Shown here piece after piece: positions 458 through 58,015 of a stretch of 58,677 nucleotides of DNA (positions are counted from its first letter, which is position 1; every line of letters starts with the position of its first letter). A model generated the notes under the pieces. The model was given only the letters and a program-made list of their open reading frames with translations, was not told where the DNA came from and made no database searches. This DNA comes from a virus (taxonomy: Duplodnaviria > Caudoviricetes). The stretch covers positions 1-58,677 of the IMG/VR virus record IMGVR_UViG_3300032295_004333, one strand, 5' to 3'. The position numbers and the translations under genes were made by a program.

Positions 458-709
458 ATGAAAAAATTTTTCTCACAGTTGTTTAACGACAACAACGCAA
501 TCAATGAAAAAAGTGTCGTTGGATTTTTAGCATTTGTTATGATGACTGGGTTCGCAATTGCGGACATCGTTACAGGTTCTTTAGGAAAAGACCTTGTAAT
601 TAACGAATTCATCTTTAATGCATTCCTATGGTTGGTTCTTGGTTCTTTTGGAATCGGGTCAATCGACAAATGGATTAACAAAGGTAAATCCGACGTTACT
701 GAAGAGTAA
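458..709 (+). CDS. small two-TM membrane protein (holin-like)
   Basis: 83 aa, two hydrophobic segments, charged C-terminus; TATTTAT at 429-435 upstream. Confidence 0.55.
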   Translation: MKKFFSQLFNDNNAINEKSVVGFLAFVMMTGFAIADIVTGSLGKDLVINEFIFNAFLWLVLGSFGIGSIDKWINKGKSDVTEE

Positions 710-749: not shown

Positions 750-768
750 CTATTGGTATTTATAGTAG

Positions 769-3694: not shown

Positions 3695-3733
3695 GTTTAT
3701 AAATACAAAAAAAGGTGGGAATTTACCCACCTT

Positions 3734-4716: not shown

Positions 4717-5396
4717 GGGTAATCGATTTGTTTGGTTTCAGTATCAAATAATAATGTAACTGGTTTGTTTTCATGAGTATATCTTTCACCTAAAACAGAA
4801 GCATTTATAAATTCAACACCATTGAAACTTTTCTGACCGTAGGCACAGTGGATGTGACCACAAACGTGAATTTTAGGTTGAATTTCCATAATTCTTTGGA
4901 ACAAATCTTCACAACCCACTCTCTGTCCGTTTGGAACCCAATCAAGCATTCCGTGAGCGGGACCGTGAGTTAGAAGGATATCTGTATTTCCAGGAATTAA
5001 TGCCCATTTTTCTGCAAGTTTCTCTCCTCTTGGAAGATTGAATGCCCAATTGAAAAACTCAGGCTGCCAAGGACTACCCCAAAAGTTAACTCCATCAATT
5101 TCAACACCACTATCGAATAGATAATGAACACCTTTTTCCTTGTATTCGGGTGCAATATCGCTCACAAGTTCAAACCCCCAATCGTGGTTACCTGCAATGA
5201 AGATTTTATGAGTGTAATCAACATTTGAGAACCAGTCCAAAAAACTTTTGATTTCTCCTGTCTTACCCATCATACTGATATCACCAGCATGTACAAGTAC
5301 ATCTCCACTACCAAGGATATTACCATACGCCTTGGATGTTAAGTACTCGTGTTTGTTGTGAGTATCACTAATAAATGTTATTTTCATCTTCTTCAT
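4713..5396 (-). CDS. calcineurin-like metallophosphoesterase
   Basis: SDTH, HAGD, AGNHD, THGP and GHIH motifs. Confidence 0.9.
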   Translation of the reverse strand: MKKMKITFISDTHNKHEYLTSKAYGNILGSGDVLVHAGDISMMGKTGEIKSFLDWFSNVDYTHKIFIAGNHDWGFELVSDIAPEYKEKGVHYLFDSGVEIDGVNFWGSPWQPEFFNWAFNLPRGEKLAEKWALIPGNTDILLTHGPAHGMLDWVPNGQRVGCEDLFQRIMEIQPKIHVCGHIHCAYGQKSFNGVEFINASVLGERYTHENKPVTLLFDTETKQIDYP

Positions 5397-5526
5397 CTTT
5401 ATCCCAATTTAGGAAGTCTTCACCCTTGTAATCAGGGTAATTTTTTTTCATATAATCAATTCCTCTAACCCAAAAAATTGATATAATTCCTGCTAAGGTA
5501 AATGAAATAATAATACCAACTATCAT
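5368..5526 (-). CDS. small membrane protein
   Basis: ATG at 5526, one N-terminal TM segment (MIVGIIISFTLAGIISIFW). Confidence 0.5.
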   Translation of the reverse strand: MIVGIIISFTLAGIISIFWVRGIDYMKKNYPDYKGEDFLNWDKDEEDENNIY

Positions 5527-5540
5527 ATAATTTAATTTAT

Positions 5541-6143
5541 TTAATCCCACCAATTTGTTATTCCTGAGCCATCGTACCATTTTTCCCAATGGTCATACTT
5601 CATCTTTTCTTCGTCAGAAAGGTTTTCGTGTAATTTACTAAACTCATTAATGTCCTGACCTTTAAGAATCATCCATAATTCATTTTGCTCTAATTTTTCA
5701 ATTTCACGGGCTCTATCATAAACCTTTTTGTTATGCTCATGTTCTTCAGGAGTATCATCAATGTCCATAATCCAACCACCTGAATTCTTAATTTCACCTA
5801 ATTCAGACTCGGCCATCGAGATATAATTACTTTCATCAATATTTTTGATGAGTTGGATTACCCTTTTAATCTTTTCGACCTTTTTCAAACGAGTAGATTC
5901 AATCTCGTTTCCATGATTTTCTAAAGTATTAACCGTTTTTTCCAATGAACGGGCAAACAAACTTAAATTGAAGGTATAATCCCAAGACCTAAAATACCAA
6001 AGTTCTTTTCTGAAAAACCATAGGTTTTCAAAAAACATGGGGATTTTATATCTAAAAACTTCATAGGTCTTATACCACCAAGTTTGATGACGTGCAAGAA
6101 CCTTCAATGACTTCCAAAAACTATCTGCGAATTTAATTTCCAT
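5541..6143 (-). CDS. hypothetical phage protein
   Basis: 200-aa Trp-rich ORF ending in WWD. Confidence 0.65.
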   Translation of the reverse strand: MEIKFADSFWKSLKVLARHQTWWYKTYEVFRYKIPMFFENLWFFRKELWYFRSWDYTFNLSLFARSLEKTVNTLENHGNEIESTRLKKVEKIKRVIQLIKNIDESNYISMAESELGEIKNSGGWIMDIDDTPEEHEHNKKVYDRAREIEKLEQNELWMILKGQDINEFSKLHENLSDEEKMKYDHWEKWYDGSGITNWWD

Positions 6144-6389: not shown

Positions 6390-6632
6390 TCAACTCATGA
6401 GGTTCTGAGGGTAAGAAAATTGAGATTCTTTGTTTCTATATGAAGCCCAAAATTCACTTTTCAATAATGAATTCCACTTTTGATTTGAATTTTGAGAAGC
6501 ATGTTTGATTTCCCAAAGAAAGTAGCATTTGAGTGCAGTATTCAACTGTTCTTTTGATTGAACTGATTCAACCAATCTGATTACCCAATTAATTTCTGTT
6601 TTTGCTTTGTTGATATCCATGACTTGTTCCAT
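6390..6632 (-). CDS. hypothetical protein
   Basis: 80-aa ORF with TATCTTTG promoter at 6647-6654. Confidence 0.55.
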   Translation of the reverse strand: MEQVMDINKAKTEINWVIRLVESVQSKEQLNTALKCYFLWEIKHASQNSNQKWNSLLKSEFWASYRNKESQFSYPQNLMS

Positions 6633-6680
6633 AAAATAAATTTTATCAAAGATACCAACAAAAAACTTCTTAAAAAAAAA

Positions 6681-7523
6681 TTAAGATAATAATTTGTAGT
6701 ATTCTTTGAAATGTTTTAGTCTATCAGGTAATCCGATAGTTCCACCATTAACGCATTTTGTAACCGAGGTTACAGTTGCATCAGTTGCGTCGACACATCT
6801 TTTCAAACAGTTCTTACTGAAAAACCACGCTGCGGATAATAGAGGATATTTTGTCGAAACCAAATCAGGATTTGAAATCACGTCTTCATTAATTGCTTTA
6901 CCAAAAGCTGTGTAATTATCTTTCCCTGTTAATTGTATATAACCTCTACCTCTGAACTTAAAACCCTCTCCTGTTGATTCAGGACCATTACCCATTCTAC
7001 CACCATAAACTCTACTTGCAATCTTTTGTGGATTTCTTTGATATGATTCTGCTAAACCAGCCTCTTTAAAGTATTTCGGAAAAATACCTCTAAGACCACT
7101 CGCGGAATAGTTTAAATTTTCATTAACCACTCTGAAGCCTCCACTTTCATGTCCACATTGCGCCAAGAAATGTGCCAACTTTAATGGAGTATCAATTCCA
7201 AATTTAGCTGCAGTTTCAGGGATTTGAGCAATCACATTATCAGGAATATGTCCCTTCAAATTTTCCAATTTTAAACCACCAACAGAAACAACAGGTTGAT
7301 TAACTTGAGAAGGTTTTGCTGGTTCAGTAATTAAAACTGCTTGACCCATAATTTTTTGCCAAGTTTGTTCCCCAACAATACCATCAGGAGTTAAACCATT
7401 TTTAAGTTGAAAAGCTTTCACAGATTCTTCGGTTCCTCTACCAAATATACCATCAGAACCTAATCCTAATTTAGATTGGAGTTTTTTTACGTCTTCTCCT
7501 TTTGACCCAACTTTGAGTAGCAT
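6681..7523 (-). CDS. endolysin: N-terminal peptidoglycan-binding domain plus GH19 catalytic domain
   Basis: GSKGEDVKKLQ..DGIFG..FQ..NGL.PDGIVG; AHFLAQCGHESG, FRGRGYIQLTG, VNGG..GL.DR. Confidence 0.92.
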   Translation of the reverse strand: MLLKVGSKGEDVKKLQSKLGLGSDGIFGRGTEESVKAFQLKNGLTPDGIVGEQTWQKIMGQAVLITEPAKPSQVNQPVVSVGGLKLENLKGHIPDNVIAQIPETAAKFGIDTPLKLAHFLAQCGHESGGFRVVNENLNYSASGLRGIFPKYFKEAGLAESYQRNPQKIASRVYGGRMGNGPESTGEGFKFRGRGYIQLTGKDNYTAFGKAINEDVISNPDLVSTKYPLLSAAWFFSKNCLKRCVDATDATVTSVTKCVNGGTIGLPDRLKHFKEYYKLLS

Positions 7524-7551
7524 AGTAATTTACTTTTTATATAAATACTTT

Positions 7552-8991
7552 CTATTGTGAAGAATGGGATAAGTTAACATCACCCAAAACACAATATTTT
7601 ATATTTTGGGTTAGGCTATTTGTTGTGAAATTTAGAGTAAATGAGGTAACAGGATTAATACTACCGAAATTATTTTTATTAATTAAATCGTAATTTGAAG
7701 ATGAAAACCACAATACCTCGGTGATTGGTCTAAACCCTGTGATATGCGCGGCAACCAAGTAAGCGTCACCTAAATCCAAAATTCCGTTTCGATTAACATC
7801 GGATGCTTTCCATTGTTTTGTACCTGTTAAAACTAAACCCGATGGAGTTGACGTTGGAGTTGAAATATTTTTGGTCTCGTCAAAAACTAAATTGAAATCT
7901 TGTGATGTAACCCCATCAACAGAAAAGGAGGGTATCAATTTGTATGTTGTATTTTGAGCAGGAATACTAAAAGTGAAAAATCCACTTGAGGTAACTGTTT
8001 TAGTTTCAATAAGATTGTCTACACCATTAACAACTCTAAATAAAGAAATTGTTGGATAAGTTGAAAGTGATGGAACCGATATTGTCCCCGATATTGAACC
8101 TAATGATACCTGATTAGTTACGTTTGCACTATAAAAATCAGTGAATGTTTGTTGTTCAGGGTTAGCCCAAGTACCAAATTCAACTATGTAAGGATTTGAC
8201 CAACTTGCAGAACCTGGTAGGTCGTTCCAACAACTACCTCCACCCCATTTAGTAACCGCAAAATCTTCATCACCACTATTGTTTGGCTCACCGACACACC
8301 AATTGTTATATTGACCCGCAATATTACCTGCGGTTTGTCCATTTTGAGTTTTAATTAAAGTTCCATTTTCAGGACCCGCATCAATTCTCCAATAACCCTC
8401 TTGTACCCTATCAGTAAGTGCAAACCAAATATTAGTCTGTGGTACATTTGATATAATAAACGCTTCCTCGTTAGCTGATGTTATTGTAACAAGATAACCT
8501 GTTTGTCCTTTGAAAGTTTGTGATGCAGAAAGTGCTTTTGCGTTATCATATGTTGCTGTTGTAGATATAGGTCTATAAAAGTGACCATTAATCGGATTGT
8601 AATAATATCCTACAGGATTAACTGTTGCAGTAACTGATATTTGAACATTTCCTAAGGTTGAACCTGTATTAACTTTGAGTGATGCCAAAGCATTGTTAAT
8701 ATTTGCCATCGTCCCTGTAAAACTAATTCGTGTAATATTTGACCAACTGTTATAACCTGTAGCAAAAGAAAGACCTGATGTGGTAGTAATAGAAAAGGTG
8801 GTCCCTGCAGGAGGATTAACAAAGCCTATTGATGCCAAAAGAACACTTGATGAATTAAATCCACTCAAAACAAATCCACTACCATCTTGATTTGACGTGT
8901 TGAATTGATATATCCTTGAGGGTGGTGAAGTAATACTCTGACCAAACAAAAACAAGGGAAGAAAAAATAATATTATAAAAAAGTATCTCAT
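7552..8991 (-). CDS. secreted protein with C-type lectin-like and dockerin-like domains
   Basis: Signal peptide; GYLVTITSANEE, YNNW..GEPNN, WND..YIVEF (CTLD); DVNRNGILDLGD Ca-loop; C-terminal LGDVNLSHSS. Confidence 0.75.
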   Translation of the reverse strand: MRYFFIILFFLPLFLFGQSITSPPSRIYQFNTSNQDGSGFVLSGFNSSSVLLASIGFVNPPAGTTFSITTTSGLSFATGYNSWSNITRISFTGTMANINNALASLKVNTGSTLGNVQISVTATVNPVGYYYNPINGHFYRPISTTATYDNAKALSASQTFKGQTGYLVTITSANEEAFIISNVPQTNIWFALTDRVQEGYWRIDAGPENGTLIKTQNGQTAGNIAGQYNNWCVGEPNNSGDEDFAVTKWGGGSCWNDLPGSASWSNPYIVEFGTWANPEQQTFTDFYSANVTNQVSLGSISGTISVPSLSTYPTISLFRVVNGVDNLIETKTVTSSGFFTFSIPAQNTTYKLIPSFSVDGVTSQDFNLVFDETKNISTPTSTPSGLVLTGTKQWKASDVNRNGILDLGDAYLVAAHITGFRPITEVLWFSSSNYDLINKNNFGSINPVTSFTLNFTTNSLTQNIKYCVLGDVNLSHSSQ

Positions 8992-10370
8992 AGATTAATT
9001 TTACTACCAATCAAGAAAAATGATAGAACTGGAAATTCAGGATTGGTACTCAGATTGGCTTTGTAATTAACGTTTATTTTAAATCTACGAGTGAATTGAT
9101 AATCAAAACCTGAACCTAAAAATCCACTGAATGTTCTATCACTCACAGTTACTTTATCAAATGAAGAATAAACTAATGGTGTTGAAATTATATAAAGTTC
9201 AGGGGAAATTGTTAATTTTTTTCCTGATTGGAAAGGTCTTGTATAAAACGCAGTTATTGATGGACTTATGAATAAGTTTTTCTCATCTGTGACCTTAGTA
9301 ATCATTCCACTTACGTTCATTCCTGTTATTCCCCATTTTCCAGCATTTAATATTGCACTATAACCAATAAAACTCATGTAGTTTCCATAAGAATAAAGTG
9401 CCGTTGCATTGATATTATGAACCCATTTGAGTTTACCATTACCGCTAAAATGAATTTTAGTATAACGTCCGTTAAGTGCAAATTGTTTGAAATTTAACCA
9501 AACCATTGAAGTTACGCCCCAACTTGCTGTACCCGTCATAGATGAACGAGAAGTACCTATGTTTATGATTCCTGTGAATGACTTGTCTAAATTTTGTGCA
9601 CTTGTTAAATCTGAAGATATTACAATCGGATTGTTTCTTGCTGATTTGGAATTACTTCCACCCCCTTTTTCATTCTTCGAATCGACGTTCATCTGAGTTT
9701 CCGCAGCTACTTCGGACCCTTCAGAGTTTTTACCTTTTGAATCGTTTGATGAACTCGTTTGTTGAGAGTTCTGAGACCCTGTCTGATTAGATGAAGATGA
9801 GCTACTGACGCCGCCACCGACAGGATTATTATTGTTTTGAGAATTCTGAGTATTGTTTTGATTGCTTCCACTAAGTCCGCCAGAAGTCCCACCGCTCCCA
9901 GTATTACTACTATTAGAAGAGGAACTGCTATTAGAATTATTACGATTTTCATTTTTTGACTTATTTTTTGTATTATTTGAAGTTTTTGGGTTGTCTATAA
10001 CCAAACTTCCCGCAGTTTCAGATGCAATTGCTCCAGCAATACTTGAAACCACATTCCCTATGACTTGAGAGGTGATTTGATTTCTAATAACGTTGGTTGA
10101 TTGAACTGAACAAGGGGATATCTTCCTATAATCAGAATAAACCTGATTAATCCAATTGGCAAATTCACCGCTAGCAACATCTGCTGCAGTGAACGTTCTG
10201 GTTTGACCAAAAAAATATATCACAGTACCTCCTTGTAGTGGTATTGTGAAAGTGGTTACAGATTTTGTGCAAGGGTCAACAAAAGAAGTGGTCATAGTTT
10301 GACCATCAACTTTCAAGCTGAGAAATAAGATAAAGAATATACTTAAAAAAGTTCTTAATCTTTTGCACAT
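8988..10370 (-). CDS. secreted protein with a Ser/Asn linker and probable C-terminal outer-membrane beta-barrel
   Basis: Signal peptide, low-complexity S/N tract, alternating hydrophobic strands ending IGSKINL. Confidence 0.55.
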   Translation of the reverse strand: MCKRLRTFLSIFFILFLSLKVDGQTMTTSFVDPCTKSVTTFTIPLQGGTVIYFFGQTRTFTAADVASGEFANWINQVYSDYRKISPCSVQSTNVIRNQITSQVIGNVVSSIAGAIASETAGSLVIDNPKTSNNTKNKSKNENRNNSNSSSSSNSSNTGSGGTSGGLSGSNQNNTQNSQNNNNPVGGGVSSSSSSNQTGSQNSQQTSSSNDSKGKNSEGSEVAAETQMNVDSKNEKGGGSNSKSARNNPIVISSDLTSAQNLDKSFTGIINIGTSRSSMTGTASWGVTSMVWLNFKQFALNGRYTKIHFSGNGKLKWVHNINATALYSYGNYMSFIGYSAILNAGKWGITGMNVSGMITKVTDEKNLFISPSITAFYTRPFQSGKKLTISPELYIISTPLVYSSFDKVTVSDRTFSGFLGSGFDYQFTRRFKINVNYKANLSTNPEFPVLSFFLIGSKINL

Positions 10371-11122
10371 TATCTCGGGAATTTACCCTTTTTGATTAAT
10401 CTAACGAGTATTCTACCACAAGCAATATCTAATGCTTTCTTTGTAGTTATACCGATAGTTGATTGATTGAATTTAACATCACTCAGATTATCATCGTTGA
10501 GTAAGGTTAATTCTCTTACTGTTTTAGCTTCACCAAGACCACTTGCTGCAACTATTTCTCCTGTCTCAGCATCTGTGAATCTAACTTGTAGACCAAGTCT
10601 TGTATTGACGGTGTTTTTCACACCATCTTTCAGGTTAACTGTTTCATCTTCGGATACAGAAAAATCATAAACCTCAATTGTTACAAAATAATGTGCGAGT
10701 CTAATTTTTCCTCTACCGTCAAGTTTGTCTTGAGAGATACCTGCTTGTGAAGCTTGGAATTGTTTTACCATCCTGTTTTTAATCTCAGTTTTATCTTCAG
10801 TAAAAGTAAATCTGTTCAGTTCTGAGAGATATTCTAAAACAATGTTTGCAACACCTAAACCGACTTTCTTTTCTTTGAGTTCAGGATATTGCTCATAAAC
10901 TTCTTCACTAATCCCAATTGTGAGAATCTGAATTGGGATTTGAGGACCATCATAGTCCATAAGTGAATCTATGTTTATTTTAGTTTCAAAACTTGCTTTA
11001 TATGATTCTGTTTTAGTTGTTCCTACTGTTTGAGCAGGAAGATTTGTTGCAATAAGAAACATAGTAATGAACCAAAGAAGGGTTATAATCCAATATTTGT
11101 GTTTTGACCAAAAATTTTTCAT
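10370..11122 (-). CDS. CsgG/HfaB-like secreted protein
   Basis: Signal peptide; LSELNRFTFTEDK, VYDFSV, LQVRFTDAETGEIVAAS.G.GE pattern typical of the CsgG-like fold. Confidence 0.65.
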   Translation of the reverse strand: MKNFWSKHKYWIITLLWFITMFLIATNLPAQTVGTTKTESYKASFETKINIDSLMDYDGPQIPIQILTIGISEEVYEQYPELKEKKVGLGVANIVLEYLSELNRFTFTEDKTEIKNRMVKQFQASQAGISQDKLDGRGKIRLAHYFVTIEVYDFSVSEDETVNLKDGVKNTVNTRLGLQVRFTDAETGEIVAASGLGEAKTVRELTLLNDDNLSDVKFNQSTIGITTKKALDIACGRILVRLIKKGKFPR

Positions 11123-11123
11123 A

Positions 11124-11660
11124 TTAATCTTGTTTAATTAGACCACATTTAAGACACTCTTCTTCACCATCACCGTCTTTATCACCCCATACGTGTTCAC
11201 ACTGACGATGCTCGAAATACATGTCGATTATTCCATCTCCGTCCTCATCAATACCATCCATAACACCGTCACCATCTTCGTCGATTTCTACACCAACTTT
11301 TGGTGAAGCTTGTTGTATAACCTGAGGGACTATTTGAGAGGTCACGGGAGTTGATGATTGCATATCAGCAGTATTCGAAACTGAAACACCATCTTCCTCG
11401 TCCATTTTTTGAACTAACATCTTGTCTTTATCAGTATCACTGAACCAATAGTCAATGATTTTACCATAAGAACCGATGAAAGCACCAAGGAGTAAAAGAA
11501 GAAGTTCTTTCCATTCTCCACTGATATTACTTTGTTCAAAAATCGCCATAAAAATTGCTCCCATGATGATGACGAATCCACCTAATACAAGAGCGGTAAT
11601 CCACCATCTTCTTTTCATCATGGAGTTAAGTAAATCTTTAAATCCTGTTGGTTGTTGCAT
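11124..11660 (-). CDS. two-TM membrane protein with Ca-binding DxDGDG repeats
   Basis: Two TMs, then IIDYWF, three DxDGDG loops and a terminal CEH/CLKC. Confidence 0.65.
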   Translation of the reverse strand: MQQPTGFKDLLNSMMKRRWWITALVLGGFVIIMGAIFMAIFEQSNISGEWKELLLLLLGAFIGSYGKIIDYWFSDTDKDKMLVQKMDEEDGVSVSNTADMQSSTPVTSQIVPQVIQQASPKVGVEIDEDGDGVMDGIDEDGDGIIDMYFEHRQCEHVWGDKDGDGEEECLKCGLIKQD

Positions 11661-11663
11661 AAA

Positions 11664-11987
11664 TTACCATTTTGGTTCTTCAGAAAATTCTTTTTCTTTC
11701 TTTGGTTTAGCAGGTTCAGCTGGTTTAGCTGCTTCTGTAGTTTTTTCTTTGATAATTACGGTTTTACCAGGAGCAGCCTGTTGTTGCTGTTGTTGGGTGT
11801 TGTTGATTATGATGTTTGGGGTTGCTTGTTGTGCGGGTTGTGCCGCTTCTTCAGCCCCACCACCGAATAATAATGTACTTAACCATACACCACCACCAGC
11901 CACTACAGTACCTAAGGTACCTACGATTGTTTTTTTGAGACCAGACCATGTTCCGTCGTTCGTCTCTTGGATTTGTTCTTCAGACAT
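11664..11987 (-). CDS. single-TM protein with a Gln/Pro-rich tail
   Basis: 107 aa, one hydrophobic Gly-rich segment, within the operon. Confidence 0.6.
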   Translation of the reverse strand: MSEEQIQETNDGTWSGLKKTIVGTLGTVVAGGGVWLSTLLFGGGAEEAAQPAQQATPNIIINNTQQQQQQAAPGKTVIIKEKTTEAAKPAEPAKPKKEKEFSEEPKW

Positions 11988-11991
11988 TTTT

Positions 11992-13899
11992 TTAAATTTT
12001 AATAAATTGTTTAGTTGTTTTATTTCTGGAATCGAAAACTACCAATTGGTATACTCCATTAGAAAGACCTTGAACATTCAATCTTTTAGTGATTTTTATT
12101 CCCAAGTCATCTGATTGGATTTTACCTAAATTTAGTACTTCCTTACCGCCGATATCATAAATAGATGCATATACGACAGTTTGACTTGGTAAATTAATTT
12201 CTAAGTTTAAGAAACCTTCAGTTGGGTTTGGAAATACTTTCATGGTTATTTTCTCTTCAGGTGATGGTGCTACGACCATCATGGCTCTATAGGTTAAGAC
12301 TGTAACATCTGATACAAGGCTAATATTGAAATGGTCCCCATTTGAATTAGAGGCGTCCATAAGTTTTCTCACGTAGACTGATGTTGAAATGTCTTGATTT
12401 GGATTAATGGCTGTGAATTTTAAATTAAAAGGGGTCACTGCTCCGACCAGTGACCCTGTTTTTTGGTTATTCATTCCTCCGAATCTAACAACACCTTTTT
12501 GAGGGTCGTGGTTAACATATTGTAACCACGGTCCCCCCAAATTGGATTGTATACCTTCGAATTTTACTTTACTAACATCATAAGACATTTCAAACTGTAA
12601 ACCTGTGTTTTGAAGCCCGTTAGTTTGAATTTTAAACGGAACATTCAAAGGTTGTCCCAAAACATATTGATTTGGAATCTCCACATTCATATTTCCTATG
12701 AAGTTGTATGCTAAAACTTCTCCACCTTGAGAGTCGAATACTGGTGAAGAGTGTGTTCTATCAACGTCTCCGAGTATGAAATATTTCAAGTCAAGAGTTA
12801 GGTTTGTTGTACCGACAGAGTCCGTTACGAATATACCTCTGTTTGAGTACGAAGCCCAACTTGACCATGTAGTATTGGATAATACCAAACTATCATATTC
12901 ATTCTTTTTGAAAACGTTAATTAATTTGTTTAAATCGATTGGTTTTAGACCTGATACCGATGCGTAAATCCCATAAGGGTCACCAGCGTCTAAAGTTCCT
13001 GTAAGGTTAATATCACCAATTAAATAAGATAATGGATGTCTTAAAAACTGACGACCATATCCCTGATTAACATCTGTTGATGTAAATTCATTGAATGTTT
13101 TAACAGCATCAGTTATTGTAACTGCTCTGTCTCTGAGTAACGCTAAACTATCTTGAGGAAATCTTAACTCTATTTTATATCTTGTATTTTCCTCAATATT
13201 ACTCAGAGTATAGTTTCCCGTTGCAGCGTTTGGTTGCGTTGAAGAAACTAACTGATTGGTATTCAAATCATAACAATTTATGGTAGGTAACAAGCCTGAT
13301 GATGTAACTGAACTTGGAAGGTGAACTTTACCTGATATGGTTAAGTTACCTAGTAATTTTACTGCCAACTTTTTGTAAGATAAGTTAGCCACGTTATCAC
13401 CAATTGATGTACCATCCATTTTAATCATCCTCACCCAGTTTACGGTGATAGAGTCTGATACGTAGTTCGGAGCTACGTCGTTAATTTTGTACTTGTTATG
13501 AATTATGTAACCGTTGGAACTAACAGCACTACCATTGGATAAAACTAAGTAGTTTCTACCAATAGCCCATTCTGTGTTTGCCACATAGTTGTAATTCCCA
13601 TTTGAATAAGAATCATACTTGTAGTCGTTCCAAGATTTGTAATCCACAACAGGTGAGTTCCCGTTAACTGCGGGGTCTACCGTGGTTGATAGATACGTGA
13701 ATAGGGTTTTCTTGAACTGCCAGTCGACTTGGAAACCTCGGATGTCTACACCTGATGCTGGTTTATAATACCAGGCAACATCCAAAGTATCACCCCTTCT
13801 AACTGTTGCAAGTTGTTGAAAGTGACCTATTTCTGGGGTTTGTGCATAACTACTAATACCACATATTAATAGCAGCAACCCCAAAAGGGTTTTTTTCAT
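11992..13899 (-). CDS. T9SS cargo protein with cohesin-like and dockerin-like domains
   Basis: Signal peptide; cohesin-like GDTLDV..IRGFQVDWQF and VPFKI..GLQFEMSYD; GDINLTGTLDAGD Ca-loop; type A CTD VFPNP..IYDIGG..LSNGVY..KQFIK. Confidence 0.8.
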   Translation of the reverse strand: MKKTLLGLLLLICGISSYAQTPEIGHFQQLATVRRGDTLDVAWYYKPASGVDIRGFQVDWQFKKTLFTYLSTTVDPAVNGNSPVVDYKSWNDYKYDSYSNGNYNYVANTEWAIGRNYLVLSNGSAVSSNGYIIHNKYKINDVAPNYVSDSITVNWVRMIKMDGTSIGDNVANLSYKKLAVKLLGNLTISGKVHLPSSVTSSGLLPTINCYDLNTNQLVSSTQPNAATGNYTLSNIEENTRYKIELRFPQDSLALLRDRAVTITDAVKTFNEFTSTDVNQGYGRQFLRHPLSYLIGDINLTGTLDAGDPYGIYASVSGLKPIDLNKLINVFKKNEYDSLVLSNTTWSSWASYSNRGIFVTDSVGTTNLTLDLKYFILGDVDRTHSSPVFDSQGGEVLAYNFIGNMNVEIPNQYVLGQPLNVPFKIQTNGLQNTGLQFEMSYDVSKVKFEGIQSNLGGPWLQYVNHDPQKGVVRFGGMNNQKTGSLVGAVTPFNLKFTAINPNQDISTSVYVRKLMDASNSNGDHFNISLVSDVTVLTYRAMMVVAPSPEEKITMKVFPNPTEGFLNLEINLPSQTVVYASIYDIGGKEVLNLGKIQSDDLGIKITKRLNVQGLSNGVYQLVVFDSRNKTTKQFIKI

Positions 13900-13900
13900 T

Positions 13901-14398
13901 TTACTTGAAAAGGTTTTGGATTAATGTCTCTGAGGACTTTTTTATAACATTCGAAACGGATTGTTGATTGATTGTTCCTGCTTCAGATATGATAATTGTG
14001 GACATAGAAATTTCTGAAGACTTTCCTGTAGAAAGATATTCTTTAATTTTCTTACCCGTTGGGGAATAAAGTGTTCCCCTCATTCTTAAAATTGTTTCAC
14101 TATTGTCTTTGTGAAAAACTGAAACACCAGTGTTGGTTTGCAGGATATCGAAGTATATTAATTCAACTTTTAATGAATAATCGGAATTGTTAAGAGAATC
14201 TGCAAGAGTATAGTCCATCTCTTGTAAACTTTCTAAAATGATATTTTTAACACCAAAACTTAAATTACGATTTTTAACCATTGGTCCAATTTGAATCTTA
14301 TTTTCAATAGGATATATAAAAATTCTCTTCGGTTCCTGTTTTTCGTGTGAAGGAACGAGCAATAATAAGGTCAGTATGAATGATAGAAATATCTTCAT
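13901..14398 (-). CDS. secreted/periplasmic protein, first gene of the envelope operon
   Basis: Start reassigned to MKIFLSFIL (signal peptide) after TATTTATA at 14420-14427. Confidence 0.6.
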   Translation of the reverse strand: MKIFLSFILTLLLLVPSHEKQEPKRIFIYPIENKIQIGPMVKNRNLSFGVKNIILESLQEMDYTLADSLNNSDYSLKVELIYFDILQTNTGVSVFHKDNSETILRMRGTLYSPTGKKIKEYLSTGKSSEISMSTIIISEAGTINQQSVSNVIKKSSETLIQNLFK

Positions 14399-14471
14399 TT
14401 GATAAAGTATCTTGGTATCTATAAATACAGATTTTTGGATTAAAATAGTATTTATTAATAAAGAATTTTTG

Positions 14472-15578
14472 ATGTCTATACTGAATGAAATAAGTAGAAT
14501 ACGTGCCGTAATGGGATTTCTTAAAGAAGAAGAAGAAATCGGTGGTCTAAAAATGAATATGAATCTTAAAAGTTTTGTTGAAACTTTACAATTCCTTAAA
14601 TTATATTCAAATAAGATTGAAAGAATGTTGATGGATATAACGGATTTTGCCAACAATCAAATTATAGATTTCGATATGATGAATAGAGGTTTGAGAAAAG
14701 TTCTACTCAAGAAAGGAGACAAAGGAAAAAATGTTGAGGACTATTTGGGTAAAATTATCACTTCATTGAAATATAGAGAAAGGAGTGGTTATGGAACTGA
14801 ACCTGAAAGTGAAGACTACGAATTTGAAATTGAAGAACCCTCTATTGTTCCGAAAAAAGTATTCAGAAAAGAACTTTATGAACTCCAAGTTGAACTCCTG
14901 AAGTTACAAGAATGGTTGAAACAAACTAACAAAACTGTTATTATAGTTTTTGAAGGTAGAGATTCTGCAGGTAAAGGTTCAACAATCAAAAAATTCGTTG
15001 AAAATTTAAATCCAAGATACTATAACGTAATTGCATTGGGTGTACCAACTCCTGATGAAAGAAAAGATTGGTGGAACAGATACCGTAATCAAATAAAACC
15101 TGGAATGATAAATCTATTTGATAGAAGTTGGTACAATAGAGGATTGATTGAACCTGTTATGGGTTATGGCTCCCCTGAAGAGTATGAAGACTTTATGGAG
15201 AATGTTGCGGACTTTGAAAGAGATTTGGTAAAAGATGGTGACTACTTATTCAAATTGTGGTTCTCAATCGACAAAGGTACACAGGCAAGAAGATTCAAAA
15301 TGAGACAACAGTCCCCATTAAAATATTGGAAATACTCTCCAAATGATTCTAAAATGCAAGATTTGTGGGACAGATTCACCGAGTTCAAAGAAAAGTTGTT
15401 TGATAAAACCTCCACTTTAAATCACCCTTGGGTTATTATAGATGCTGAAGATAAAAGAGTATCTGGGTTGAATGCCATAAGATACGTACTTCAGAATATT
15501 CCATATGAAGGAAAGAATGAAAAAGTATTAGATAAAGAATTCCCTGAAGTATTAGCAGTATTAAAACCAAATTCGTAA
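14472..15578 (+). CDS. ppk2: polyphosphate kinase 2 with a ~130-aa N-terminal extension
   Basis: FEGRDSAGKGSTIK Walker A, LFDRSWY, KLWFSI, WKYSPND; start reassigned to MSILNE after TATTTAT 14449-14455. Confidence 0.92.
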   Translation: MSILNEISRIRAVMGFLKEEEEIGGLKMNMNLKSFVETLQFLKLYSNKIERMLMDITDFANNQIIDFDMMNRGLRKVLLKKGDKGKNVEDYLGKIITSLKYRERSGYGTEPESEDYEFEIEEPSIVPKKVFRKELYELQVELLKLQEWLKQTNKTVIIVFEGRDSAGKGSTIKKFVENLNPRYYNVIALGVPTPDERKDWWNRYRNQIKPGMINLFDRSWYNRGLIEPVMGYGSPEEYEDFMENVADFERDLVKDGDYLFKLWFSIDKGTQARRFKMRQQSPLKYWKYSPNDSKMQDLWDRFTEFKEKLFDKTSTLNHPWVIIDAEDKRVSGLNAIRYVLQNIPYEGKNEKVLDKEFPEVLAVLKPNS

Positions 15579-22169: not shown

Positions 22170-22202
22170 ACAAATATAAATACTCTAGTTATATTTATTA
22201 TC

Positions 22203-27154: not shown

Positions 27155-27754
27155 ATGGCAAGTAACAATAAGTTCGTATCAAATCAAAGAAATAATGTAA
27201 ATCATTTTAACTATTATTATTTCACAAATGTTTTCACCGACCAAGAAATAGAACAAATAATTGAGTTTGGTGAATCTCAACCCAAAATAAAGGCAACAAC
27301 GGTTGGTGAGGATGTCTCTCAACAAGTTTCGGAGTATAGAGTAAGTGATATCGCATGGTTATCGAATAATCCAAAAACAAAATGGGTTTATGATAGAATT
27401 TCGGATTTGGCTATTAAGGCTAACAATGAAATGTGGAATTTTGATATATGGGACTTCCAAGATGATTTACAGTATACTTCATATTATGGTAATGGTGGTC
27501 ATTACGACTGGCACGCAGATTTAGGTGTAGGAATTTCAAATAGAAAACTTTCAATTGTTCTACAATTATCTAATGCTGACGAATATGAAGGTGGAGAGTT
27601 ACAAATGAATACTGGCGGAACAATTCTGAATGTTCCAAAGGAAAAAGGATTAATTTGTTTTTTCCCTTCTTTTGTTTTACATAGAGTAACCCCTTTATCA
27701 TCAGGTCTTAGAAGGTCACTCGTAACTTGGTTATGTGGAGCTAATTTAAGATGA
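27155..27754 (+). CDS. 2OG-Fe(II) oxygenase (PKHD/prolyl-hydroxylase-like)
   Basis: YDWHAD, RKLS, YEGGEL, FPSFVLHRVTP, RRSLV. Confidence 0.9.
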   Translation: MASNNKFVSNQRNNVNHFNYYYFTNVFTDQEIEQIIEFGESQPKIKATTVGEDVSQQVSEYRVSDIAWLSNNPKTKWVYDRISDLAIKANNEMWNFDIWDFQDDLQYTSYYGNGGHYDWHADLGVGISNRKLSIVLQLSNADEYEGGELQMNTGGTILNVPKEKGLICFFPSFVLHRVTPLSSGLRRSLVTWLCGANLR

Positions 27755-33806: not shown

Positions 33807-34457
33807 TTACAAACCCAAAATATCATTCACAATTTCTTCCGATGAAAGATATTTCCATAATCTTGGATGTTGATAAGACCATATTGTTTTCCAATAACCA
33901 AACCAAAGAAGTCCTTCTTTTCTAGGGTCGATTGTTTTCCAATCCGTGCAACTTTTTGGAAATCTACCTATTCTATAGGTCTTGTATGGTGTTATATCTC
34001 TTGTTTGATATCTTGTATCCGACTCCATATCGATATCTTCAAATTTTGAAAAAATTTGAATTTTACAATAATTTTTCCTTTGATATTCTTTGATTTTGGA
34101 TAACCAAAATTTCGCTTCATCGTAGCTATCAGTTTCTAAAATAAACCTTACCACTTGGTCATAATCATTATATCTGTGGCTGAATATCAATTTTAGTCCA
34201 TACAATGGGTCAAACTTGTATATTTTGATTTCAAAATCCATGTAGAATTCTACAGGTACTCTAAATTCTTTGTAAGGCCAATTACAGTTTGTAGTTACGT
34301 GAAAACTTTCTAAAGTGACTGGTTGATGGTCAACACCCCTGTATTCAACACACTCAACAAAATAAGTTAAATCAGGACCACCTATCTTTACTGTGATACC
34401 ATTATTGAAATCTAAAAGTATTTTCTCATTTCCTACTTGTAAAAACATAATCTCCAA
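33807..34457 (-). CDS. hypothetical protein
   Basis: ~216-aa ORF downstream of the carbamoyltransferases; start uncertain. Confidence 0.55.
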   Translation of the reverse strand: MEIMFLQVGNEKILLDFNNGITVKIGGPDLTYFVECVEYRGVDHQPVTLESFHVTTNCNWPYKEFRVPVEFYMDFEIKIYKFDPLYGLKLIFSHRYNDYDQVVRFILETDSYDEAKFWLSKIKEYQRKNYCKIQIFSKFEDIDMESDTRYQTRDITPYKTYRIGRFPKSCTDWKTIDPRKEGLLWFGYWKTIWSYQHPRLWKYLSSEEIVNDILGL

Positions 34458-36021
34458 TTATAAGTTTGTCCAAAGTACCGTCCATAAGTTTGGGGAAAGC
34501 GTGGTCGGGTTTATCTATGATAGGTTCATTGTGTGTGTTAAATGATGTATTCAATAAAACAGGTACACCTGAAATTTTGTAATACTCATTAAGAATCTCC
34601 CAAAACATGGGATTATTTTCTTTTTTCACTAATTGAGGTCTTGCGGTTTTATCGGATTTTTGAATTACTGCAGGGATTCTTTCAATCCACTCATCTTTTG
34701 TTTGGAAACACAACGTCATGAATTCTGCGGTATATTTTGATTTGTTTTCGACAAAAATATTATCAAAATGTTCTTCCATAACTATAGGTGCAAACGGCAT
34801 GGAGTCGTGTCTTTTGAGACGACTATTTAATTTCTCATGTGTTCCTATATCCGTGGGTCTAACTAAAATACTTCTAGCCCCAAGAGCCCTCGGACCATAT
34901 TCAAAACCATGTTGAAACCAACCGATTATTTCTCCGTCGTCAAGTAGTTCAGCGATTTTTGTAGGATTATACGTCTCATATTGAACGTTATATCTTTCAG
35001 AAGCGTCAATTATTTGTCGGTTAGAATATTTTTTACCAAAAAACATATTTTTCAATTTAATAGGTTTTGTTATTTCACCTAATTCGTGTGCTTTAATTAT
35101 ACAAGCACCCAAACTCAAACCCTCATCACCCATAGCAGGAAAAACATACATTTCCTCAACCCAAGGTAATTGGTTAATTTTTTGGTTCAATTTTACATTC
35201 GCAAATAATCCCCCTGAAAGACAAAGTTTTGTATATTCAGGAAATTTTTTATTTAAATCGTTAAAAAACTTTAACATCAAATCTTCAGTAAGTTTTTGAA
35301 GATTATATGAAAATTTTTCGATGTTTTTGTGGTCTTCAAACCAACCGAGTCTATGCATTGTTTCTACCACGAATCTGGTTTTGTTTCCTGTGTCGTTTGG
35401 AAAAAAACGTAAATCTTTATAGTCAATAAGAGAGTTTAAAATTCTGTAGTAAGTTTCATCATATTCTCCATCAGGAGCCATTCCCATGAGTTTTCCTTCG
35501 TCTTTACACATTTTCCATATACTCTCACCGTCTTCATCGTAACCCTTGATTGTGCTAACTGAAAAAGCCCACAGGTGACCTAAACTTCCTGTTGAACACA
35601 TGTCGTAAGAATGTGCTAAGGTCATCTTTCCATCTTCACACAAATAAATTTTCATAACAGATTTATCTCCACCCCCATCGTATGAAATACTTAAAGCTTT
35701 TCCTTCCATTCCACTTGTGAAGTATGCACCATAACAGTGAGCATCGTGGTGACTTACCCTATCGTAATTGAAATTTGTTAATTTATTTGCGAAAGTTTCA
35801 GTTACTGGCTCAACAAATACTCTATGGTCCGCATCGGTAATAGAAACTCCTGTGATTTTCTCAACCTCTACCGAACTCATAATTGCTACGGAATCAAAAT
35901 TATCACCAGCTTTTTTTCTAGTGAGTCTTTCTTCTTCAATACAACAGATTATTTCACCGTCTTTGATAAACGAAGTGGATGGACTATGAGAACCTCCAAA
36001 AAAACCATATATTGTGCTCAT
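34426..36021 (-). CDS. O-carbamoyltransferase (CmcH/NodU/TobZ family)
   Basis: EEERLTRKK, HHDAH, DGGGD, EGKLMGMA, GGLFANVKLN, EYGPRALGARS, LLNTSFN. Confidence 0.92.
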   Translation of the reverse strand: MSTIYGFFGGSHSPSTSFIKDGEIICCIEEERLTRKKAGDNFDSVAIMSSVEVEKITGVSITDADHRVFVEPVTETFANKLTNFNYDRVSHHDAHCYGAYFTSGMEGKALSISYDGGGDKSVMKIYLCEDGKMTLAHSYDMCSTGSLGHLWAFSVSTIKGYDEDGESIWKMCKDEGKLMGMAPDGEYDETYYRILNSLIDYKDLRFFPNDTGNKTRFVVETMHRLGWFEDHKNIEKFSYNLQKLTEDLMLKFFNDLNKKFPEYTKLCLSGGLFANVKLNQKINQLPWVEEMYVFPAMGDEGLSLGACIIKAHELGEITKPIKLKNMFFGKKYSNRQIIDASERYNVQYETYNPTKIAELLDDGEIIGWFQHGFEYGPRALGARSILVRPTDIGTHEKLNSRLKRHDSMPFAPIVMEEHFDNIFVENKSKYTAEFMTLCFQTKDEWIERIPAVIQKSDKTARPQLVKKENNPMFWEILNEYYKISGVPVLLNTSFNTHNEPIIDKPDHAFPKLMDGTLDKLIIGDYVFTSRK

Positions 36022-36026
36022 TTATT

Positions 36027-45551: not shown

Positions 45552-45580
45552 AAAAAACCCATCAGTGATGGGTTTTTTTT
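45552..45580. terminator. bidirectional terminator
   Basis: AAAAAACCCATCA/TGATGGGTTTTTT between convergent genes. Confidence 0.8.
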
Positions 45581-46892: not shown

Positions 46893-46942
46893 TGTTTATA
46901 AATATTGATTGGGGGATAAAAAAAAACCGAGATGAACTCGGT

Positions 46943-50772: not shown

Positions 50773-50788
50773 ATGGTATAAATACCAT

Positions 50789-57991: not shown

Positions 57992-58015
57992 GTTTATAAA
58001 TATGAAAAAAGGGAC

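Follow-up and report, generated by a model that had tools for sequence, protein, structure and literature searches.

What use could a phage have for a set of genes that joins the assembly modules of cellulosomes to a lectin, a fold known from curli secretion and a sorting signal of Bacteroidota's type IX secretion system (T9SS)? The question is raised by a 58,677-nt stretch of viral DNA (Duplodnaviria; Caudoviricetes; IMG/VR record IMGVR_UViG_3300032295_004333, positions 1 to 58,677), the whole of which was analysed and is called the window below. Seven open reading frames (ORFs) of its minus strand, here named g1 to g7 in the order of transcription, are tightly packed at 7552-14398, neighbours lying 1-4 nt apart or overlapping by 1-4 nt. 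An earlier note, written from the letters of the window, had described seven co-directional, nearly abutting envelope genes behind one sequence motif, and the ORF coordinates, a topology scan and the position of the motif (14420-14427) bear out that description. These genes form a genuine and conserved module, common in lakes and so far without a description in print; each part can be assigned to a known family, although two hallmarks are missing (the CsgG lipobox and a match to the Dockerin_1 profile), and their combination in a virus is new.

A scaffoldin-like protein and its predicted lectin partner

The argument starts from g2 (11992-13899, minus strand), whose 635-aa product reads as a scaffoldin-like T9SS cargo protein in an AlphaFold2 model, in structural comparison by VIA-align and in searches of Pfam and NCBIfam. 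The model, computed from a 22-sequence alignment, has a mean predicted local distance difference test score (pLDDT) of 69.4, with confident domains at about residues 22-182, 186-246, 400-540 and 552-634, and with two unfolded stretches, 252-323 and 376-398, of pLDDT <50. Along the chain we delimit a first cohesin (13345-13842, minus strand as are all parts of g2; residues ~20-185), a small beta-sandwich resembling CarboxypepD_reg (13162-13344; residues ~186-246, pLDDT about 90), a dockerin-like region (12730-13128; residues ~258-390), a second cohesin (12271-12702; residues ~400-543) and a type A T9SS C-terminal sorting domain, or CTD (12001-12237; residues 555-633). Residues 403-542 superpose on the Clostridium thermocellum cohesin 3kcp with Z 14.7 and a root-mean-square deviation (rmsd) of 2.7 over 137 aligned residues, and on 1aoh with Z 14.6 and rmsd 2.4, and residues 19-185 superpose on the C. 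perfringens cohesin 2vo8 with Z 13.7 and rmsd 3.0 over 134 aligned residues, and on 2jh2 with Z 13.4. When relatives of g2 were scanned singly, Pfam Cohesin (PF00963) was found in 14 of 22 (best E 7.8e-6) and CarboxypepD_reg in four of 22 (best E 2.7e-4); the window's own g2 gives no Pfam Cohesin match at E<=1, and the g2 family profile run against the sequences of the PDB found no cohesin or dockerin and one weak CTD-like match. The two cohesin-like domains that the earlier note had seen are thus borne out by the structural matches and by the Pfam hits among relatives, and in the predicted structure they are confirmed as true cohesin folds.

The CTD is recognized by sequence in the window's own protein. 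Pfam assigns it to Por_Secre_tail (PF18962; E 1.6e-10, 41.6 bits, cut-off 27) and NCBIfam to the type A model TIGR04183 (E 1.4e-7, 31.4 bits, cut-off 23), the matches ending at residue 633 or 634 of 635, so that the type A assignment made earlier rests on two profiles above their curated cut-offs; in Pfam scans of single sequences, all 22 g2 relatives carry the match. These data fit a g2 that is addressed to the T9SS by a type A CTD, and T9SS-dependent export of the protein is predicted. The layout, a Sec signal at one end and PF18962/TIGR04183 at the other, is the same as that given for type A cargo in PMC12618676, from which g2 differs in being a viral gene. A search of the full-text literature, with subscription journals and supplements outside its scope, found no paper reporting a phage-encoded T9SS cargo.

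The partner proposed for g2 is the last gene of the block, g7 (7552-8991, minus strand), which encodes a secreted lectin of 479 aa with a C-terminal dockerin-like module. Its C-type lectin domain (8221-8511, minus strand; residues 161-257) scores 26.3 bits with Lectin_C (PF00059) against a cut-off of 22.6, and the family is matched by 20 of 20 relatives. Residues E235, P236, N237, E242, W255, N256 and D257 are invariant in the 20 sequences of alignment A6; they include the signature EPN (235-237) and WND (255-257), which we take to be the calcium site and the mannose/N-acetylglucosamine (GlcNAc)-type sugar site of classical C-type lectins. The C-type lectin named in the earlier note is upheld by the score and by this invariant motif. 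Domain content varies among relatives, with extra immunoglobulin (Ig)-like domains in three of 20 and an extra C-terminal cohesin in one of 20, and also at locus L092.

The C-terminal 135 residues of g7 (7555-7959, minus strand; residues 345-479) repeat the dockerin-like module of g2 in a motif scan. The module of g2 holds an EF-hand-type loop, DINLTGTLDAGD, and a second motif, GDVDRTHSS, and that of g7 holds the loop DVNRNGILDLGD and a terminal GDVNLSHS. The first loop of both fits D-x-N-x-x-G-x-x-D-x-x-D with its D/N/G/D positions invariant, and in the 22 relatives of g2 the invariant residues are D296, N298, D304, G306, D307, G377, D378, R381, S384 and S385. Dockerin_1 (PF00404) is found in nine of 20 g7 relatives, in each case weakly and below the cut-off (best E 0.0073). 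A dockerin consists of two tandem segments of ~22 residues, each formed by a calcium loop and a helix; the modules of g2 and g7 differ from known dockerins in their size of about 130 aa, in the long insert between their calcium motifs and in failing Dockerin_1. Among all ORFs of the window, which covers the smaller part of the phage genome, dockerin-type motifs occur in g2 and g7 only, besides an acidic repeat in g4, and within the window there is thus no sign of virion proteins docking on the scaffold.

The earlier note had called for a complex model of the cohesin-like and dockerin-like domains. The model was given both g2 cohesins, with g7 residues 345-479 as partner, two calcium ions and our own alignments, and in three runs it placed the g7 module on cohesin 1 with ipSAE scores of 0.78, 0.89 and 0.83 (median 0.83), the best of three controls scoring 0.00. 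The three runs share at least 95% of their contacts, with a partner pLDDT of 77 or more; the mark used for such scores is reached by 116 of 157 solved complexes and by two of 215 mismatched pairs, a calibration that is rough here because own alignments and a ligand were supplied. Since the control in which cohesin 1 was replaced also scored 0.00, the g7 module is placed on that domain, and docking on cohesin 2 was dropped for the same reason. The predicted contact joins g2 residues 54-57, 82-93, 102-123 and 157-165 to g7 residues 366-380 and 399-421, that is, to the first helix and to the calcium loop with its helix. We thus regard contact between the dockerin-like module of g7 and cohesin 1 of g2 as predicted, the model showing likeness to cohesin-dockerin pairs and not binding as such.

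CsgG-fold proteins, membrane proteins and export signals

The remaining five genes suggest an apparatus in the envelope, in which g5 (10370-11122, minus strand), a secreted protein of 250 aa and the product of the best-conserved gene of the block, has the clearest affinity. Its AlphaFold2 model (pLDDT 80.3) matches CsgG with E 5.3e-8 in Foldseek and with Z 13.6 and rmsd 2.8 over 169 aligned residues (4uv2) in VIA-align, followed by PelC (Z 10.2), FlgT (Z 9.4) and LptE (Z about 8.3), and a language-model search led to CsgG/HfaB clusters with a score of 0.94. By sequence, g5 itself has no match in Pfam (E<=0.1), PHROG or NCBIfam, and phmmer recovered only 230 proteins at E<=0.001 from 1.84 billion representatives. 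Its distant relatives, full-length or fused, pass the cut-off of Pfam CsgG (PF03783) in 15 of 37 cases; the profile of alignment A3 finds CsgG first among PDB sequences (E 0.0095), and the best match in a viral structure library is an uncultured-phage protein named CsgG (E 1.1e-7). The cluster membership of ten distant relatives gave no informative names or taxa. In five distant homologues (P0104, P0108, P0127, P0125 and P0128), the g5-like part is fused to a caspase (Peptidase_C14) or Ser/Thr kinase domain; both kinase-fused proteins pass Pfam CsgG, and the three caspase-fused ones fail it.

The fold by itself does not make g5 a curli channel or a holdfast anchor. Its signal ends in NLPAQ/TVG and has no cysteine, and in 27 phage sequences (alignment A1) residue Q31 is invariant and no lipobox is seen. 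The strand pair at residues 145-184, amphipathic as judged by eye, lies in the hidden Markov model alignment opposite a stretch of CsgG that we take to be its first membrane hairpin. Pfam and NCBIfam searches of the block gave no match to CsgA, B, E or F or to Hfa-like proteins. Thus, for the CsgG-like protein of the earlier note, the fold stands (Z 13.6 to 4uv2), and neither a lipobox nor curli or holdfast partner genes accompany it. Compared with CsgG/HfaB, g5 shares the fold and the amphipathic hairpin at the place of the first membrane hairpin, and it differs in having no lipobox, no CsgE/CsgF/CsgA/CsgB-like partners and a shorter second hairpin. The phage block further differs in carrying a second, shorter paralogue in the same operon. 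This is g1 (13901-14398, minus strand), a secreted CsgG/LpoB-like protein of 165 aa counted from the ATG picked in the earlier note; alignment of its profile (A4) with that of g5 (A3) by hhalign gives a probability of 92% and E 6.4e-7, and g1 is, as judged by these profiles, a short paralogue of g5. A second comparison is with pairs of a ring or plug lipoprotein and a barrel, PelC-PelB and LptE-LptD: here too g5 matches the first member (PelC, LptE) and the next gene, g6, is a barrel candidate, whereas the g5 matches are weaker than to CsgG and no polysaccharide or lipopolysaccharide genes are linked.

The product of g6 (8988-10370, minus strand; 460 aa, secreted) consists of a Cys-bearing N-terminal domain, a hypervariable linker and a C-terminal beta-barrel candidate. 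The linker is built of S/N/G/T or A/E/K repeats and its length varies, so that relatives range from 355 to 598 aa, and the conserved C-terminal part comprises ~215 residues (alignment A5). The sole lead for this part is a language-model match to KdgM, Tsx and Phage_OMP porin clusters (0.92-0.93); Pfam on 24 relatives and the g6 profile against PDB sequences returned low-complexity noise only. By analogy, the layout resembles that of an autotransporter, with the C-terminal part as a candidate barrel.

Two membrane proteins precede g5. The first, g3 (11664-11987, minus strand; 107 aa), is bitopic, with an acidic N-terminus, one Gly-rich transmembrane segment (TM), a Q/P/K-rich tail and an invariant last W, and its PHROG matches are weak, including one to a 'hol-like' PHROG (E 5.2e-5). 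The second, g4 (11124-11660, minus strand; 178 aa), has two TMs and a tail with DxDGDG repeats and an H/C-rich motif, which by the positive-inside rule would be cytoplasmic. Residues 50-91 of g4 (11388-11513), covering TM2 and the juxtamembrane part, are identical in eight of 12 lineages and differ by one to three residues in the other four, and 6-25 of the 42 third codon positions differ across 11 comparisons with the window; a protein that is near-invariant while third positions vary implies strong purifying selection on the protein. Such selection is extreme in both g4 and g5. The g4 family is large, with 7355 members at E<=0.001 among metagenome protein clusters at 90%; the 120 relatives listed show no Pfam domain and no name except 'hypothetical protein', and the g4 profile found nothing meaningful among PDB sequences.

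With regard to export, g1 (residues 1-18), g2, g5, g6 and g7 each have a single N-terminal hydrophobic segment according to a hydropathy scan, which gives g3 one TM, g4 two, and the neighbouring endolysin neither kind of segment. In the families of g2, g5 and g7, the residue directly past this segment is an invariant glutamine (Gln; Q20, Q31 and Q18, respectively). An invariant Gln at the predicted cleavage site fits the Q-rule for signal peptidase I substrates in Bacteroidetes (PMC5837995, PMC10653852), and secreted phage proteins following the rule have been noted in Porphyromonas phages, where they are thought to alter the outer membrane (PMC10367356). The complex may lie on the outer face of the infected cell; g7 itself has no CTD.

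Transcription unit, conservation and distribution

The block appears to be read as a unit that starts at g1. The motif TATTTATA at 14420-14427 (minus strand) lies 21 nt before the g1 ATG and is a candidate phage promoter element. The window holds 16 copies of it against 6.1 expected, a number reached by one of 100 shuffles, and by coordinates ten of the 16 sit 4-22 nt upstream of ORF starts, that of the endolysin included (7540-7547, minus strand); TATTTATA may thus be a phage promoter with very short leaders. Further sites are found, for example, at 757-764 (plus), 3698-3705, 22175-22182, 46897-46904, 50777-50784 and 57995-58002 (all minus). That TATTTATA marks late genes, as T4 late promoters do, was considered and set aside, TATTTATA being the reverse complement of the T4 late promoter, TATAAATA. 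A scan of the window for sigma-70-type promoters gave 37 sites, fewer than the 47.2 of shuffled sequence, and is thus uninformative. In 13 of 22 lineages inspected, (A)TATTTAT stands upstream of g1, often directly behind a terminator-like hairpin, so that g1 opens a transcription unit in many lineages. Downstream of the block, the only strong terminator-like hairpin of the minus strand is at 3735-3710, and the unit may thus extend past the endolysin. A terminator-shaped hairpin (10 bp, GC-rich) with a T-run, readable on both strands, also occurs at 12431-12457 inside the g2 coding region. Contigs from metatranscriptomes of four freshwater or aquatic libraries match g1 (14132-14396), g2 (12368-13731), g4 with g5 (10305-11294) and the endolysin (6474-7497), the closest with 0-5 differences and two g2 contigs with 8-17. 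The contigs listed leave 7688-9223 (g7 and part of g6) uncovered, which for contigs proves nothing on expression. These matches are a weak sign that the module genes are transcribed in nature, since such libraries can hold DNA and the contigs give neither strand nor level.

To what extent do the seven genes belong together? With g2 or g5 as bait, 109 loci were fetched, in which the bait is present by construction; 60 are distinct, and 39 of these are roomy enough for the whole block. All seven genes are present in 27 of the 39, in the same order in 24, and at least six are present in 37; the synteny check that the earlier note had asked for thus finds the genes conserved together. The median identity to the window over the 60 distinct loci is 80% for g5, 72% for g4, 58% for g7, 55% for g6, 52% for g2, 51% for g3 and 48% for g1. 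The machine-like g5 and g4 are thus far more constrained (80%, 72%) than the exposed g1, g2 and g7 (48%, 52%, 58%), and a conserved machine with variable, domain-shuffled exposed parts is the pattern to be expected where a surface system has to cope with a ligand that changes.

Among GenBank phages, a tblastn search with g5 finds only Flavobacterium phage vB_FspM_immuto (four records, 55% identity), a 160-kb cultured myophage isolated on Flavobacterium sp. LMO8, and a megablast of 6500-14700 gave no match. In immuto (NC_055915), gp013 is a lectin with a dockerin-like loop, gp014 holds cohesin 1 and the dockerin-like module, gp015 holds cohesin 2 and the CTD, and gp016, gp017, gp018 and gp019 are homologues of g3, g5 (55% identity), g6 and g1, respectively; no g4 homologue was found in the block. 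The RefSeq record already uses the names 'cohesin domain-containing protein' and 'lectin C-type domain-containing protein' in this block, and its products otherwise bear a domain name or are called hypothetical. The neighbours of the block are, on one side, nuclease and ribonucleotide reductase genes and, on the other, tRNA genes, a nuclease gene standing directly before the lectin gene. The homologous module of immuto, gp013-gp019, is thus reduced and differs from that of the window by the missing g4, by the split scaffoldin and by its place among replication and nucleotide-metabolism genes. By analogy, the split scaffoldin (gp014, gp015) is the layout expected of an anchor and an adaptor in a logic of the cellulosome type.

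This comparison allows us to place the module beside cohesin-dockerin assemblies, whether cellulosomal or not (C. thermocellum CipA; C. perfringens glycoside hydrolases). In common with these, the g2 cohesins match solved ones with Z 13-15, a helix and calcium-loop module is predicted on the cohesin face, and immuto shows what may be an anchor, an adaptor and a terminal subunit. The differences are that the module is encoded by a phage of Bacteroidota, that no enzymes are attached and the docked subunit is a lectin, and that anchoring would go through the T9SS CTD instead of an S-layer homology (SLH) domain or sortase.

The g2 protein recovers 31 IMG/VR loci, and g5 matches 529 IMG/VR stretches (80 kept), on contigs of up to 321 kb. 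The module is nevertheless not confined to huge phages, as the 160-kb immuto carries its reduced form. In 15 lake-water metagenome runs, a possible source run excluded, a fraction of at least 0.83 of the region's sampled words is present. The module most likely belongs to lake-water phages infecting Flavobacterium-like Bacteroidota. PHROG matches on either side of the block, namely HNH endonucleases, a thymidylate synthase (E 1.6e-107), a head maturation protease (E 6.2e-35) and two carbamoyltransferases, support the view that the window is phage DNA.

Several neighbours deserve mention. The endolysin (6681-7523, minus strand; 280 aa) begins 28 nt past the seven-gene block and combines PG_binding_1 (E 9.4e-14) with Glyco_hydro_19 (E 6e-9) in Pfam, with a match to phrog_181 (E 2.4e-65). 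The GH19 (glycoside hydrolase family 19) endolysin that the earlier note had placed next to the block is there in the window and is an inconstant member elsewhere, with a homologue in 17 of the 39 roomy loci. A small protein of 83 aa with two TMs and a charged tail (458-709, plus strand), which has no PHROG or Pfam match, travels with the module in other genomes, its homologues standing between g4 and g5 in 12 lineages and just before g1 in five. Downstream of the endolysin, a 73-aa protein with one TM and an acidic tail (5368-5589, minus strand) is a holin-like candidate, with homologues near the endolysin/thymidylate synthase region in L090, L091, L094 and L108. A TonB-dependent-receptor-like outer-membrane protein of 825 aa (Pfam CarbopepD_reg_2, Plug, OMP_b-brl_3) and a lipoprotein of 398 aa (lipobox FIGC) form a pair at 51203-54873 (minus strand), for which PHROGs gave nothing; elsewhere the pair lies between g5 and g6 (L083/L088), directly after g7 (L090/L091) or just upstream of the module (L096). 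Other cargo adjoining g5 or the lectin gene in relatives comprises a class 3 lipase, a GT2 glycosyltransferase and a non-specific (secreted-type) DNA/RNA endonuclease (L083:10718-11455, L092:10725-11420, L104:9046-9678, L110:5172-5750). Farther off in the window, a polyphosphate kinase 2 (E 3.3e-70) is encoded at 14472-15578 (plus strand), divergent from g1, a 2OG-Fe(II) oxygenase at 27155-27754 (plus), two tandem carbamoyltransferases at 34426-37697 (minus) and a protein with an M23 peptidase domain at 45579-46892 (minus). PADLOC on ten proteins returned nothing below E 0.01.

What the module may do for the phage

Our tentative answer, to which we give somewhat less than an even chance, is that the phage builds a Sec- and T9SS-exported, calcium-dependent lectin scaffold in the envelope or on the surface of the infected cell, and that the scaffold masks the receptor. 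According to this proposal, g1, g2, g5, g6 and g7 would leave the cytoplasm through Sec, their signal peptides exposing an N-terminal Gln like those of the host's phylum, and g3 and g4 would remain in the inner membrane. The scaffoldin g2, in the order cohesin, beta-sandwich, dockerin-like module, cohesin and type A CTD, would be handed to the host T9SS and end on or beyond the outer membrane, where the g7 lectin would plug its calcium-loop module into the first cohesin; the dockerin-like module of g2 may in turn bind cohesin 2 of a neighbouring g2, giving chained scaffolds. The CsgG-fold proteins g5 and g1 and the barrel candidate g6 would form an outer-membrane or periplasmic platform, working with the two constrained inner-membrane proteins and possibly serving as a passage for g7, which has no CTD. 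As a result, a calcium-dependent lectin from the mannose/GlcNAc class would cover the infected cell and bind the cell's own surface glycans, so that the phage receptor would be masked, superinfection blocked and progeny spared from infected cells and debris. The computation yielded the folds and motifs, the signals for export, the degree of conservation and a predicted g7-g2 contact; the location and stoichiometry of the complex, the job of g1 and of g3 to g6, and the biological role are our interpretation of them. Of the roles, receptor masking or superinfection exclusion by binding of host glycans in cis is the one we prefer, with low confidence. A broader claim, that the seven genes make up a self-contained display system in which a polymerising T9SS scaffoldin and its docked lectin are served by an unlipidated CsgG-fold ring, an autotransporter-like barrel and two inner-membrane proteins, seems to us unlikely as a whole, if worth entertaining.

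A number of observations weigh against the scaffold proposal. The dockerin-like module of g2 is unfolded in the AlphaFold2 model (pLDDT <50), and the dockerin-like loops that the earlier note described stand with their invariant D/N/G/D, whereas the other motif of these modules, GDV[DN]xxHS, departs from the usual pattern and follows after a long insert, 60-70 residues on, and neither g2 nor g7 of the window matches Dockerin_1 in Pfam. As cohesin-dockerin complexes have already been solved, the score of the predicted contact may partly reflect the memory of the model. Since g1, g5, g6 and g7 have no CTD, a known way of crossing the outer membrane is open to g2 alone. In g5, the lipobox cysteine is missing, whereas the consensus that includes bacterial relatives (A3) has LxxxC, and the segment corresponding to the second membrane hairpin of CsgG is short and was modelled with low confidence, which together make a channel doubtful. 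Finally, the gene neighbourhood itself points in part towards lysis, through an endolysin that occupies several positions in 17 of the 39 loci, once between g4 and g5 (L080), a small two-TM gene that fills the same g4-g5 slot in a dozen lineages, and a TATTTATA common to g1 and the endolysin.

The last three points lead to the main rival, in which g3, g4, the small two-TM gene, g5 and g6 would be an apparatus for lysis or its timing that breaches or controls the Bacteroidota envelope, the cohesin and lectin proteins being accessory; we hold this unlikely, though serious, and the same holds for the more specific version with holin- or antiholin-like inner-membrane proteins and a periplasmic or outer-membrane part replacing spanins. 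The endolysin abuts the block in the window, and in other genomes it is found right after g6 (L099, L108) and shortly upstream of g1 (L078, L090, L091) as well as in the slot just mentioned; the 83-aa protein between g4 and g5 in 12 lineages, with its two TMs and charged tail, is small-holin-like, the promoter-like motif precedes both g1 and the endolysin, and g3 has its weak match to the 'hol-like' PHROG. Lysis proteins, however, usually diverge fast, and g4 and g5 are the best-conserved genes of the region. No outer-membrane lipoprotein of the o-spanin type is present, as g5 and g1 have no lipobox; 22 of the 39 roomy loci have no endolysin homologue, none of 33 neighbouring ORFs at six other loci carries a lysozyme or amidase domain, and in immuto the endolysin lies 8 kb from the block, behind the tRNA genes. 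The small TM proteins of 83 and 73 aa have no PHROG match, and searches for holin or spanin families with these two, g3 and g4 gave nothing beyond the 'hol-like' hit. A third reading keeps the scaffold and moves its ligand: adhesion in trans would glue the infected cell to other host cells or glycan-rich particles and so bring the released progeny close to new hosts. It draws on the same lectin, cohesin and contact evidence as masking, on the varying domain content of the lectin and cohesin proteins (Ig-like domains in 3/20, an extra cohesin in 1/20) and on the precedent of phage-borne lectin genes proposed to raise host adhesion in another phylum (PMC12911398). The physical complex would be the same and only the place of the ligand different, a distinction beyond the reach of sequence. 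We consider adhesion in trans rather improbable as the function.

Two further explanations fare worse. The lectin scaffold might hold glycans for the phage's TonB-dependent-receptor-like porin, as a miniature polysaccharide-utilisation system; the window does encode a CarboxypepD_reg, Plug and barrel protein with a partner lipoprotein, and the pair is inside or beside the module in L083/L088, L090/L091 and L096. In the window, though, about 40 kb separate the pair from the module, only 12 and 10 of the 109 fetched loci (duplicates included) have homologues of the receptor-like protein and of the lipoprotein, respectively, the endolysin is the only linked glycoside hydrolase, and CsgG-fold proteins have no known role in uptake; nutrient capture is thus, in our estimate, quite improbable. 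That a bacterial locus, or a host island carried by a prophage, has been mistaken for phage genes is hardly credible and already contradicted. The domains are indeed typical of surface proteins of Bacteroidota, and a scan of one genome for each of 185,579 species with the close g5 alignment A1 matched contigs of three metagenome-assembled genomes (MAGs), one of 2.7 kb labelled Thiobacillus, one of 112 kb binned with Sediminibacterium and one of 12.6 kb binned with Flavobacterium. As only these three MAG contigs were matched with a close alignment, the scan says little about bacterial relatives. Against such a mistake stand the phage genes that flank the block on both sides, the relatives on IMG/VR contigs of up to 321 kb and in a cultured lytic myophage, and the mere three matches among so many species.

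Returning to the masking scaffold, its nearest functional counterparts are phage proteins that alter the surface of the infected cell. T5 Llp, a receptor-blocking phage protein, acts in superinfection exclusion. As with Llp and the Q-rule proteins of Porphyromonas phages, the genes described here are viral and carry export signals of the host type; each of those cases involves one small protein, whereas here there is a seven-gene module with a scaffold, a lectin and machine-like parts. No description of such a module was found by full-text searching within the scope given above, in keeping with the earlier statement that no described phage system is like it. Papers on immuto concern, judging by titles and abstracts, DNA modification, polymerases or ecology, and the words immuto, cohesin and lectin are absent from a paper on Baltic Flavobacterium phages (PMC7077304).

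What the finding would mean follows from this contrast. Phages have been known to alter the infected-cell surface by way of single small proteins, whereas the kit described here spans several genes, is carried by a widespread group of phages from lakes and combines modules known from cellulosomes, from lectins of the animal type, from curli secretion and from the type IX pathway specific to Bacteroidota. With its host Flavobacterium sp. LMO8, immuto forms a cultured pair, which renders the reading testable. If it is true, cohesin-dockerin assembly also serves viruses, which hijack the T9SS for cargo of their own, and compact calcium-switchable docking pairs, together with a T9SS display tag, would be at hand for engineering Bacteroidota. 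If the broader display-system reading also held, the module would be the first cohesin-dockerin assembly of a virus and the first device for secretion through, or anchoring in, the outer membrane to be carried by a phage, re-surfacing the infected cell. The scaffold proposal, if true, would also offer a handle on how infected Flavobacteria deal with glycans, particles, other cells or other phages in lakes.

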